Assembly (NCBI GenBank): GCA_964016885.1
Contig: OZ024745.1
Span: 12,896,001 to 12,960,000, forward strand
Length of the DNA stretch: 64,000 nucleotides
Reading direction: 5' to 3'
DNA from: Eledone cirrhosa
Lineage: Eukaryota
Made by a program: the position numbers and the translations under genes
The notes under the pieces: generated by a model
Databases searched by the model: none
What the model saw: the letters and a program-made list of their open reading frames with translations, nothing else
What the model was told of the DNA's origin: nothing
Part shown: positions 1,285 to 62,646 of the stretch, in pieces
How the letters are laid out: every line of letters begins with the position of its first letter
Numbering within the stretch: the stretch's first letter is position 1

Positions 1285-2285
1285 GGAACCAGTAAGACCC
1301 CGACGGCTGAGCTCAAGCCGTTTCGACGGCTAATTCTGGACTAAATGAAAATTTATCCTGGTTTTTAAATAGCCGATCTTCTCAACGGGTAATTCCATAT
1401 ATGGTCAAAGTGATTGTCAAAAGTCAGTAGTAATTCTGTGATTGCAAATTAGTAGGGGAGATGGTGGCTAAACCTGCCAGTAGGAGAAAGAGGGGAGGGG
1501 GTGGAGTAGACCCAATCAAGCGTTGGTAGTGCCAGCTACAGCTGGGCATGAGGTCAAAGAAGATACTGGGGAGGGGGAGGGGGAGGAAGTCGGAACGGTA
1601 GTTAGAACAATGAGGGGTAAAAATATATATGAAAGAAAAGCGAATAAGTGTAAAGAAAAAAGTAAAGCAAGTTCTACGACCTAAGTCTCTAGCTATTGTT
1701 AGGCTAGATAAATAAATAAATAAACAAAGAAAGAAGTAAAGAAAGAAATAAAGAAATAACGAAATAAGTAAATGAACTAGGTGGGACGGAATAGGCAAGG
1801 ACCCTTTTAAGAGGTATAAGTACGTAAATCATACGGTGACGGGTCAACAAATGGTGCCAAAATACTAAAGAGACTACCACGAAATAAATAATAAAGGTTT
1901 CTATCCCGGGCACAATGCCACCAACCACCCAGTGCAGCAAAGTAAACTAGCACTACCAACGCTTGATTGGGTCTACTCCACCCCCTCCCCTCTTTCTCCT
2001 ACTGGCAGGTTTAGCCACCATCTCCCCTACTAATTTGCAATCACAGAATTACTACTGACTTTTGACAATCACTTTGACCATATATGGAATTACCCGTTGA
2101 GAAGATCGGCTATTTAAATACCAGGATAAATTTTCATTTAGTCCAGAATTAGCCGTCGAAACGGCTTGAGCTCAGCCGTCGGGGTCTTACTGGTTCCTAT
2201 TACCCACTCTACTACCCCAAGTATTGGGTACTTTGGTGCGTTATGGTCCACCTGGTTCCTTACCACATTTCTTTCGTTATATTTA
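1285..2285. mobile_element. Non-autonomous or truncated PLE-like insertion (family A): 248-bp inverted arms with hammerheads plus ~90-nt tail, between (TA)n tracts
   Basis: 1285-1532 is the reverse complement of 1950-2197. The right arm continues into a unique tail ending in (TA)n. Confidence 0.8.
2092..2185 (+). ncRNA. Type I hammerhead ribozyme, U3-A8 core variant (mirror copy on minus strand at 1297-1390)
   Basis: ACCCg-TTGAGAA-GAtCGGCTA...TAGCCGTC-GAAA-CGGCT(tgagctc)AGCCG-TC-gGGGT. Stems II and III pair well; stem I has one G.G mismatch. Confidence 0.65.
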
Positions 2286-3099
2286 TATATATATATATAT
2301 ATATATATATATATATATATATATATATATATATATATATTTAATACAATAACAGAGAAAGCTTTAAGCTAAACTCTGACTGGTAACCATCTCACTCAGC
2401 AAACATTAGGATATACGTTAGTATAATTCCAATGTTGTGTTTGGGGTGCTAACTATATGTATTTTGTGGAAAACCAGTTGTATTAATTTATATGAGATAT
2501 AATTAAAATTAAAATATATCTCTCTTTCCAAACAATTGTTTCATTATAAGTTTTCTACAAGTTGGGAGAATGTTTCCAGTTTATGTAGAAGTCTAACATA
2601 TTTTTCTGTAAGAATATATGTAGTTGGGCACTTATAAATCATCAGTGGATGCCCATTAAACTTTCATATAAGAAAAAATTTCTTACCGCAGTTATTTTTC
2701 GTGTTGGCTAAGTCATCCCTTCACGCATCAAATGACCGCCAAATTTGAAATTCCAACAGTCTTTAGACTGAGGAAATATCATAGCGTCACGAAGCGGAAA
2801 AGGGAGGCAATCGCGAGTCACAAGAAAAGTAAAATAATATACACGTGGGTTAATTAGTTTTTTCAAAAACATTATATCAATCCTGCGTGTTAAGAACTCA
2901 ATTAATTTTAAAAAAATAAATGTATGCATGTAATAATTACACACGCATATAGATATTTTCTTAGCCTAAAAACAGAGAAGTGATACCTAGATAACAAACA
3001 ATATCTCATAACTAATAAATACGGAAAGTTACGTTTAAAAGGTATCTGGAAATAAAATTCTGTGGCCAAATCAAGAGTAAAATATTTATATATATATAC

Positions 3100-3820
3100 A
3101 TTTAGCTCTGGTTTTTAACTATTGAGCGCTTTGCCAGTATCATTTCTGATTTTTGCGTTTCGCTTCGCTTTTCCTTCCCGCCGAAATGCGATTCTCGCTG
3201 AATCTTTATTTGTATTAATCTCCCATGTCTTACAATTAACTTGTTAATAATTTCTATTGACAGGTTAATTGTATAAGTTTATATTAAAACCACTCGGTTG
3301 AGAACTTATTCGATTTGTGCTATTTATGCTATTTTTCGCATGATTTACACTTACTGAATTACTTTGCCAAAATCTGGGGTTATTCCCCTTGTGATTTCCA
3401 CACGTGGTTTAACTTACCACTGTGTCATTCACTTATTTGGTACAGAGCGAAATACCTGTTGATAACGTGATATTCCTTGTTCGATCATTATAACCAAAGC
3501 TTATATTTTTAAGCAGACTGTATTTTGATTTAGGTGTCACAGAAACTGTACATCGGATTTTAACAGCAATTCCGGGAGTCCAGGTCTGGTTATCATTTAT
3601 TTTTTATCATTTATTTTGTTTTGACCTGTTTAGCTTGATTTGGTTTTTCGCTTGGGTGGTTGATACCTTTTTGACCACCTTTTCAGTTTTGTATGGCTTC
3701 TTAACACATTGTTTAGCTCTGGTTTTTAACTATTGAGCACTTTGCGAGTATCATTTCTGATTTTTGCGTTTCGCTTCGCTTTTCCTGCCCGCCGAAATGC
3801 GATTCTCGCTGAATCTTTAT
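3100..3820. mobile_element. Element with ~110-bp direct terminal repeats between (TA)n tracts (pLTR/LTR-like)
   Basis: tttagctctggtttttaac...gctgaatctttat occurs at ~3101-3210 and ~3712-3820. Confidence 0.6.
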
Positions 3821-4015
3821 TTATATATATATATATATATATATATATATATATATATATATATATATATATTCTTTTAAGTATAAATGATGAAAATAGC
3901 TATTTACATATGAAGCAAGAACTGTTGCTGGGGGTTGTTTAAGACTACACACCTATAGTATATATATATATATATATATATATATATATATATATATATA
4001 TATATATATATATAT

Positions 4016-60339: not shown

Positions 60340-60990
60340 GCTATTGCTGACACCCCAAATGTCACATCAGTGCTGCTGTTGAATGTCAGAGGCCTGTTGA
60401 AACTCACTAACATGGATAAATTTCCGTACCTGAGAGACGTAACCATAAGCAATCAAACAATATCCATGGCACTAACTGAAACGCACCTGACAAACAGATG
60501 CGGAAATACATATACCAACATACACTTCATTTCGTTCAGACAGGAAGGAGAGAATGCATGGTGGGGTTGTAGATCTGTGAAGATGTCACACCCATGAGTC
60601 AACAGTACAATGTAACACACTGATAGTACATATAAAGCAACTAGAAATGGTAATATGTGTCACATATCACGAATAGTCACAAAGGTAAGTTTGAAGATAG
60701 CCTCAAAAGGATGGAATAAGTCCTTGACAAACTGGACCAAGGTCTCAAAATTCTGCTGCTGGGAGACTTTAACTTATCGAAGGTCAAATGGCCTGAAGGC
60801 CCTCAACTCTTCAACAAGCTGCCAAGAAATTTGAGAGATCTGCATGATGTGGACGTGGATGTTTTCAAGAAACATCTTGATACTCTGCTATCGAGGATCC
60901 CGGATGAGCCCACAGCACTACGAAGGTAACTTAAGGACAGCAGCAACGAACTCCCTCTTACACCAATGGCCAGCCAACACAGAATGTGTA
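60340..60990 (+). pseudogene. Internally deleted CR1-like LINE ORF2 relic (APE endonuclease start fused to C-terminus)
   Basis: LLLNVRGL...ALTETHL and ILLLGDFNL, then directly GPQLFNKLPRNLRD...FKKHLDTLLSRIPDEP. Confidence 0.75.
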
Positions 60991-61219
60991 GCAACAAGGT
61001 CGGTGTCCCAGCATCGCCTCAGCCGGATGGCTAGAACAGGTAAAAGAGAATATATATATAGTTTACCTCAGTAAATGTAATGAAAAATTAACACCTCGTC
61101 CATTTTATTATATATATATATATATATATATATATATATATATATATATATATTGCCACGTCACAGTTCTTAGCCATTTTGAATTCGTTTCTGGCGGGGA
61201 TCATTTAAAAAAATTCTTT

Positions 61220-61301
61220 GTTTCCTGATGAGTTCGAAGCTCGAGAATTTATCCTTGATAGGATATTTCCGAAAGCGAACGAAATCCTGAAGGGTAGAAA
61301 C
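61220..61301 (+). ncRNA. Type I hammerhead with conventional stem III (family J), in a ~440-bp element between (TA)n tracts (~61153-61594)
   Basis: GTTTC-CTGATGA-GTTCG...CGAAC-GAAA-TCC(tgaa)GGG-TA-GAAAC. All three stems pair. Confidence 0.85.
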
Positions 61302-62646
61302 GTAATCCTGGTATGTGTATATGCATTTTTTCTTCTAACTTTTATTTTATACCTAATTGTGTATGGTTGACGATATATTTAATCGATTTCCATGTGCTAT
61401 TGAAATGCTGGGTACATATTCTATAGCGGTTGATCGCGCGAATAGATGGCTGTCGTTTATTTATCTACTATTTCTTCATAGGTGCCTTTTAATCATATAG
61501 CCTTGTTTAATTGGTTTTTTGTGTGGTTGATTATGCTAATTGGGAGAGGAAATTGTATATATGTATATTATCAAATGATTCTATGGACATACTTATATAT
61601 ATATATATATATATATATATATATATATATATATATATATATATATATATATATATATATATATATATATTCTTGCCAGCCACCATGGGCACAGTCATGC
61701 ATGAGAAAATTAAAAAGAAGTATAAATATATTCGGACACGAGGAGGAGCCTTATACTCATTAATGATGGACGCTATAAACCCTATCATAGCTCAGTGTAG
61801 TGTTGATGAGAATATCCAATGAAAGCAAAGCGTACATTTGTGTATATGTGTGTGTATGTGTGTGTGTGAGAGAGAGAGAGAGAGAGAGAGAGAGAGAGAG
61901 AGAGAGAGAGAGAGAGAGAGAGAGAGGGGGAGAGAGAGAGAGAGACTGGCTAATATCCAGCTGATCGTATTTCGAATCATGTCAGCAATATCTCCCGATG
62001 ACATTACTGTTTTATTTATTATATTCTGTTTCGTTTATCATATTAGCCATGAGGTAGAAACTTGTTGAGATTCAATGTGTCATTATTATTTGAACATCAA
62101 CTATGCTTTAACCTTTACTTGAAACAGTAAACTAAATATAAACAATCTAGTTTTAGAACTACTGGGCTGGTAGGATGTTTTTAATTTTCACGTTAACTTA
62201 AAGTTAGAAGCATAAACGTACGTATTTGGCTGTGAAAAAATAGTTTAAATTAGATACAAAAGTCCCTTGGACGGGCGATGTTCTACAATTTTTCTTGTCA
62301 TCTTCAGGAGCTTATATGTCTAAATTATTAAACTGAGTATGTTTTATTACAAATCTCTGGTTAACTGTTTCTTGTTCTTTTTTGAAAATATATAAAGAGC
62401 TCTTATATATCATCTATTATATATTTCTTAATGTTTGTCTCTGTGTGCACCCCATCCTTTTACCCCTGATCCCTTAAGTATTTTTTCACATTCCTCATCA
62501 CACTTTTTCGCATCCCTTTTTTCATTTGTATGTAGCCGTGATCTTCATCCTTTTGCTGTAGTTATCATCTACTTCTCCGTTACCACTACGGTATTGAATC
62601 AATGTTTTACTAACCTACATCTTAATGCCACTCCCTTTCTCTAACA

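Follow-up and report, generated by a model that had tools for sequence, protein, structure and literature searches.

Hammerhead-bearing insertions at TA microsatellites of Eledone cirrhosa: truncated ends of Penelope-like elements and retrozyme-like units lacking open reading frames

A stretch of 64,000 nt from the 3.0 Gb genome of Eledone cirrhosa (contig OZ024745.1, positions 12,896,001 to 12,960,000; here called the window) carries numerous short segments with hammerhead ribozyme motifs next to (TA)n microsatellites. Do these segments form a separate, non-autonomous class of mobile element, or are they the ends of protein-coding Penelope-like elements (PLEs)? A preliminary description, made from the window alone, favoured a diverse population of PLE derivatives without an open reading frame (ORF). 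In the reading preferred here, to which we give a probability of roughly 0.8, 11 insertions lie within or next to TA microsatellites; seven of the families involved are truncated or inverted 3′ ends of coding PLEs, and three (D, G and J) are ORF-less units, likely copied in trans by a Penelope reverse transcriptase (RT)-endonuclease.

All 19 of the hammerhead motifs named previously were found again by a descriptor scan of the window (Table 1). With a relaxed descriptor and 100 local Markov shuffles as the null, there were 33 matches to the core with stems II and III (null mean 7.9, maximum 15), and 13 matches that included stem I (null 0.77, maximum 4). A stricter descriptor gave five window matches compared with 0.13 in the null, and missed families A, D, F and I by its strictness. 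The stem I filter was passed by 9 of the 19 motifs in their window copy. Window copies of A (four motifs) and D fail this filter because of private mutations, the commonest genomic copy having a 5 bp stem I. When each family is represented by its commonest genomic copy, stem I forms 43 of 50 pairs, whereas swapping strands across families gave 1.9 of 5 (the 5′ strand of B was one base out of register in the swap, which leaves B's own count unaffected). A chance origin of the motifs was rejected on the basis of the shuffle nulls, conservation among copies and the cross-family swap. Stem I is reduced to 3 bp in E and to 1–2 bp in B, which are of the minimal type, B being doubtful. Most families have a short palindrome as stem III; in A and J this stem is stable. 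The core of A is a U3-A8 variant, and that of H is U4C in 65 of 65 copies examined. An Rfam scan returned no hammerhead match up to an E value of 10, only microsatellite-driven microRNA-type matches, and is uninformative for minimal PLE motifs.

Repeats within the window were compared by masked self-BLAST. The genome was searched family by family, with only the best 40 candidates scored per query and 25–30 loci examined for each family. The 19 motifs resolve into 11 insertions of 10 families (A to J), so the earlier count stands but the motifs are not all separate, the pair at 18777/19585 being the duplicate of that at 1297/2092 in a tandem duplication of about 17.5 kb. All 11 insertions adjoin (TA)n at their 3′ ends, as had been described; at the 5′ end of D the rule fails, since a 170 nt inversion there abuts a (CAC)n-rich tract. 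The sequences around the motifs are mostly unrelated, as stated earlier, except that F and I have stem I in common and the two subfamilies of B are 77% identical.

Families A, B, C, E, F, H and I are ordinary truncated or inverted ends of protein-coding PLEs. Their 5′ ends and inversion points are ragged, and longer copies of A, B, C, F, H and I enter PLE coding DNA. Copies collinear over the full 1.5 kb flank were found in 4/30 (A), 5/30 (C) and 8/30 (H) loci. Both RT and endonuclease were found on A, C, E and H, and endonuclease-side fragments on B, F and I. Extended loci gave RT-endonuclease open frames of 606–635 aa (A), 882–886 aa (C) and 677 aa (H), identified by the frames themselves, their RT and YIG motifs, mutual BLASTP matches, and Atlas neighbours with RVT_1 and GIY-YIG (HTH_animal, RVT_1 and GIY-YIG in the case of H). 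In the window, E carries RVT_1 and GIY-YIG domains over the Pfam cut-offs. The longer copies of F, and one longer copy of I, extend to the C-terminus of a Hydra-type endonuclease. A pseudo-long terminal repeat (pseudo-LTR) or partial tandem, 5′ truncation, an inverted copy and a one-sided tail are all present among these families, with the type I hammerhead lying within the pseudo-LTR (in B with its very short stem I). Family B shows truncation plus occasional inversion. The unit length of A and H is 3.5–4.2 kb; the H tail runs on into the ORF of the next unit in 2/30 loci, and the tail of E overlaps the start of its ORF (46957-49674 compared with 51298-51337). An M is found in the inverted copy of E where the coding copy has I. 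First-look candidates numbered 506–2259 per family, figures that are neither copy numbers nor upper bounds.

The proteins of A, F, H and I are 36–50% identical to each other, and a CxCX5C linker is common to all four; DKT is visible only in A and H, and RWR only in H. Published accounts are drawn on here in excerpt, and statements about them refer to those excerpts. In Craig et al. (2021; PMC8557442), CxCX5C, DKT and related motifs are diagnostic of the Hydra clade, nearly all of whose families are reported to have hammerheads and to insert at (TA)n. By these criteria (CxCX5C, DKT, an RW motif and no CxxC between GIY and YIG), the four families carry Hydra-clade motifs and are provisionally assigned on that basis.

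Two fixed 3′ ends, a short and a long one lying 40–161 nt apart, were seen in all nine families tested (B not among them), and a TAT/ATA patch is found at the short ends and at most of the long ones. Eight families yielded 105 inverted insertions that had both ends and differed in length: 98 combined a long with a short end, one was long–long, none was short–short, and six had an atypical end; the queries for A, C, F and H contained the tail, which hides short–short pairs but not long–long ones. The query for I was without a tail, and still gave 9/9 long plus short. ORF-less families supplied 26 of the 98 (D, 8; G, 15; J, 3). That these palindromes are assembly artefacts was rejected, since the arms end at fixed family positions in unrelated loci.

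The links to coding DNA, the tandem units, the two fixed 3′ ends, the ragged 5′ ends and the pairing of one short with one long end are seen directly in the sequences; the scheme that follows is proposed. Hammerheads would cut a transcript longer than one unit, many of them probably in dimeric form, given their palindromic stem III, and the unit-length RNA would possibly be circularised. The PLE endonuclease would nick (TA)n, and the freed 3′ end would prime at one of two UA-rich sites. Copying beyond one unit would leave a partial tandem (pseudo-LTR), while a second priming event, from the other target strand and at the other site, would produce the inverted arm. With two priming sites, one per strand, exactly one arm would have a tail. 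Families D, G and J would contribute RNA only.

A rival account of the same elements needs no second target-primed event: the inverted arm would come from an antisense template, or from self-priming after fold-back. Self-priming at palindromic junctions has been proposed for Adineta (PMC3846280), and the present data include rare variants common to inverted and direct arms (17/20/9%) and a private stem I change found in both arms of the window A copy. Fold-back from a fixed first end predicts, however, that the same arm is always the longer. By a heuristic measure on biased sampling, the long-end arm was longer in 37 of the 98 insertions, the short-end arm in 34, and the two were about equal in 27. 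We regard this route as rather unlikely and retain the second target-primed event.

The three remaining families have a different organisation. D, G and J copies are preceded not by an ORF but by their own 3′ end, giving head-to-tail units with periods of 1297 nt (D), 429 nt (G) and 686–693 nt (J), in arrays of up to 2.4, 3.9 and 3.6 units, respectively. Their longest ATG frames are 47, 55 and 37 aa, D has one 108-codon stop-to-stop frame, and the GC content is 34–39%. By a strict pattern, and with overlapping loci included, at least two same-strand hammerheads occur in 16, 11 and 3 loci of D, G and J, of 51 loci each. Folded as circles, G has a z score of −5.8 (40 shuffles), to which a segment rich in TA/CA contributes, and J one of −2.4 (20 shuffles). 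First-look candidates numbered 2197–4660. No collected PLE frame matched the D, G or J units by tblastn, and no match was found between these units and the pseudo-LTRs of the sampled coding families. Taken together, the sequences support an ORF-less, retrozyme-like class apart from truncated PLEs.

Could D, G and J nonetheless be truncated coding PLEs, like the others, whose full-length parents went unsampled? This holds for seven of the ten families, and only the best 40 candidates were scored per search. Junctions with coding DNA were counted after 24 overlapping or duplicated loci had been removed (153 to 129). PLE coding DNA was joined at the 5′ side in 0/41 D loci and 0/42 J loci, and in 3/46 G loci, all three on the same strand and without TA. 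These three junctions involve different PLE families (Hydra-type and C-type) and different unit positions (302, 245 and 2), and therefore represent chimeras rather than a parent. A dedicated PLE partner for G, as might be read from the chimeras, was dropped (3 same-strand and 0 opposite among 46 loci), and no PLE continuation was found within 9 kb downstream of locus L196. One locus (L313) is long–long and one G copy (L186) joins DNA like that of a long interspersed nuclear element, so deletion or microhomology joining is possible for the G chimeras. Given that D, G and J run upstream into their own 3′ end, for up to about four units, the explanation by unsampled parents is very unlikely.

If units of one locus derive from a shared template, then they should share rare variants more often than units of different loci. 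Within loci, using the same reduced set, sharing was 33/32/14% for D/J/G, compared with 1.2/2.3/2.8% between loci; with loci of more than one full unit left out, the counts were 78/299, 106/464 and 84/912. Array structure is less simple. The inner two units of a D array differ at 2/1297 sites and the terminal pieces by 4–5%, and in some J array the inner units differ at 1/693. Within-array identity was therefore set aside as proof of rolling copying, being only partly supportive. Such near-identical inner units would be expected if D, G and J were minisatellites, born of solo pseudo-LTRs, locally expanded by unequal crossing-over and not themselves mobile, and local amplification has been raised by Li, Clavereau and Pollet (2026; bioRxiv 10.64898/2026.07.22.740005). 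Against this, copies are spread over many contigs in unrelated flanks, mostly as less than two units, and combine fixed TA-adjoining ends with a ragged 5′ side and with inverted arms of which one is tailed (the long-plus-short pairs of D, G and J given above); we consider local expansion still more improbable than unsampled parents, and keep to mobile units. In one G array (L308), units 1 and 3 differ at 24 sites, and from unit 2 at 43 and 45 sites, so that the units alternate, as they could if the template were a dimer.

A single ORF-less, non-autonomous class embracing all the short hammerhead elements, as their common architecture and the lack of ORFs in the window copies might suggest, can be dismissed, being refuted for A, B, C, F, H and I, where ragged 5′ ends enter PLE ORFs. 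The proposal of the preliminary description is thus narrowed to D, G and J; for seven of the ten families it fails, their ragged 5′ ends mapping to coding PLEs. Of the inverted, tailed window copies examined here (A, C, F, G, H and I in our labels, which may differ from those it used), only G is non-autonomous. Its other elements held up genome-wide: the link to PLEs, insertion into TA repeats, and an inverted layout in which a single arm bears a tail (40–161 nt).

Several observations count against the reading adopted here. With the best 40 candidates scored per query, D, G or J could have a coding parent that is rare and escaped the search, and the pattern in the D array fits later local duplication rather than rolling copying. 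No RT was found on a collinear copy of F or B, and that of I only at an inversion junction, these copies being cut before the RT and reaching the thumb or endonuclease regions. The frames of A, F, H and I match no Pfam family, and the matches of B and C are sub-threshold. Clade assignments are based on motifs and not on a tree with reference elements, and the tail-bearing queries bias the end counts against short–short pairs. Cleavage, circles and transcripts are predicted here from DNA sequence alone.

Much of the architecture is familiar. The tail, the inversion, the TA bias, PLE hammerheads and the PLE origin of animal retrozymes are already published. Similarities to the EN+ PLE Hydra clade (PMC8557442) include the C-terminal GIY-YIG, the CxCX5C linker, DKT, hammerheads, (TA)n insertion, 5′ truncation, partial tandems, an inverted 5′ copy and a tail often at one end. 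Differences are the tails of 40–161 nt, compared with 30–40 bp, and the 3.5–4.2 kb units of A and H, compared with 'generally under 3 kb'; no count of strict long-plus-short pairing was found in the excerpts of that paper. Cervera and de la Pena (2014; PMC4209133) describe PLE hammerheads as weakly active and acting as dimers, with circular templates proposed for partial tandems. Their minimal type I motifs, like those in the window, have an extra base between 9 and 10.1 and a palindromic or absent stem III; the U3-A8 variant was known among them, as were opposite-strand pairs 100–700 bp apart, there ascribed to truncated PLEs. Families B, C and E are likened to the Neptune/Nematis-type PLEs with minimal hammerheads of that study, their exact clade being left unassigned. 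In its excerpts there was no mention of a U4C core such as that fixed in the young family H. The H tail entering the next unit's ORF parallels Adineta (PMC3846280), where the tail is the start of the next unit and pLTRs drive mobilisation in trans.

As judged from their sequences, D, G and J resemble animal non-LTR retrozymes and bear the full PLE footprint. Retrozymes, like them, consist of ORF-less units joined head to tail, each with a single type I hammerhead, and have GC below 45%; they range from monomers to multimers, with a PLE origin and mobilisation proposed (PMC7229834; bioRxiv 2026). Their monomers are circularised and expressed (Cervera and de la Pena 2020; PMC7229834), and Li, Clavereau and Pollet (2026) argued for the PLE origin from co-occurrence and pseudo-LTR phylogeny, with mobilisation said still to need characterising. 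Monomer size agrees less well: D (1297 nt) is outside both the range of about 170–400 nt and the 51–972 bp of the 2026 survey, and G (429 nt) and J (about 690 nt) fit only the wider one. The arrays of D, G and J are also short and dispersed, unlike those of described retrozymes. ORF-less head-to-tail insertions forming pseudo-LTRs, mobilised in trans, recall the non-autonomous Chlamys PLEs such as MRC1 (PMC8557442) and Adineta; most Chlamys PLEs, however, are without canonical hammerheads and have a 3′ end like that of an autonomous partner, and no such partner was found for D, G and J. Neither an end-pairing count nor a PLE insertion footprint in retrozymes, comprising a TA target, a pair of fixed ends, a single tail, inversion and chimeras with PLE coding DNA, was found in the excerpts of the published accounts, whose supplements may hold related elements or tail lengths.

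It is possible, and advanced here tentatively, that D, G and J are the genomic footprint of retrozyme integration by PLE machinery, and that obligatory two-site priming is used by every PLE-type family here and would explain the PLE tail. As part of the same suggestion, G RNA may be copied by the RTs of two PLE clades, because the three same-strand chimeras carry Hydra-type and C-type coding DNA. How PLE tails and inverted ends form, and what moves retrozymes, are stated as open in PMC8557442 and bioRxiv 2026. In one genome, many independent families obey one end-pairing rule, and ORF-less hammerhead units bear the same footprint; these families supply RNA templates and priming sites that are defined well enough to assay PLE integration. 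In annotation, the majority of hammerhead matches here belong under truncated PLEs, and Hydra-type proteins escape Pfam.

Table 1. Hammerhead motifs and insertions in the window (window coordinates; UTR, untranslated region)
Feature	Position	Strand	Details
Hammerhead cores, first part	1385-, 2097+, 18865-, 19590+, 36743+, 37151-, 37356+, 46169+, 46546-, 49704-		descriptor scan
Hammerhead cores, second part	51145+, 51715-, 51728+, 56880+, 57231+, 58357-, 59106+, 59473-, 61225+		descriptor scan
A	1285..2283	+	1285-1535 inverted, short end; direct arm tailed by 82 nt (2201-2282); truncated end of Hydra-type coding PLE
A, hammerheads	N17 at 1302(-) and 2180(+)		U3-A8
A, segmental duplicate	18765..19776	+	not an independent event
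B, subfamily 1	36687..36855	+	PLE 3′ end; minimal hammerhead with core at 36743, stem III ACGT and a weak stem I
B, subfamily 2	56320..56993	+	coding PLE, 5′-truncated to its 3′ UTR and end; core of minimal hammerhead at 56880
C	36892..37557	-	palindromic; 55-nt tail 36892-36946; hammerheads 37151(-), 37356(+); coding PLE end
D	45506..46361	+	170-nt inversion at the 5′ side, then 45678-46361; long 3′ end at (TA)n; hammerhead 46169-46232, AUC site
E	46398..51337	-	coding PLE; 905-codon open frame 46957-49674 (RT, GIY-YIG); partial tandem
E, inverted arm	50675-51337		40-nt tail; minimal hammerheads 46546(-), 49704(-), 51145(+)
F	51617..51914	+	palindromic end centred near 51721; 80-nt tail 51835-51914; hammerheads 51715(-), 51728(+)
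G	57008..57531	+	57008-57149 inverted, short end; 57144-57531 direct, long end with a 51-nt tail; hammerhead 57231-57261
H	58272..59352	+	399-nt identical inverted arms; 161-nt tail 59192-59352; U4C hammerheads 58357(-), 59106(+); Hydra-type coding PLE end
I	59369..59701	-	minus arm carries hammerhead 59473 and the short end; plus arm bears a 100-nt tail, 59601-59700
J	61152..61604	+	5′-truncated copy of ~690-nt unit; hammerhead 61225-61296, 4-bp stem III; short 3′ end at (TA)n

The surrounding DNA is itself repeated. By self-BLAST, 1–17.4 kb of the window is duplicated at 17.5–35 kb (about 99% identity; window 1-35745), and contig C5 carries the whole region about four times (12.55–13.17 Mb), at a spacing of 170–220 kb. 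Hammerheads extend beyond the ten families: the fetched loci (1.32 Mb) hold 27 hammerhead clusters, most of them within a few hundred bases of (TA)n, and with at least 27 clusters there, the genome would have far more families than the window.

A further hammerhead candidate at 241-364 and 17709-17832 (+) has a U4C core, a TA run 46 nt after it, and relatives of 81–85% identity in four other loci, and is probably another PLE end. Inverted arms at 7124-8170 and 23865-24911 end at a TA run, with the same end in one fetched locus (L029); no hammerhead was found in these arms, which are possibly a hammerhead-less PLE end. An older relative of A (67–76% identity) lies at 35800-36531 and has CTGAGAA at the core position. 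Hammerhead-like motifs at 38013-38092 and 61995-62066 (+) have no long TA run close behind and, among the fetched loci, occur only in segmental duplicates.

Upstream of the hammerhead, C (37256-37265) and D (46025-46032) carry a GCGCATGCGC-like motif, which we take to resemble an NRF-1 site and which may mark an internal promoter. The tract at 39500-45500 is 6 kb of low-complexity DNA rich in (CAC/CAA)n. Fragmented frames at 52364-54460 (-) contain what are presumably helicase-like and Helitron Rep-like words.

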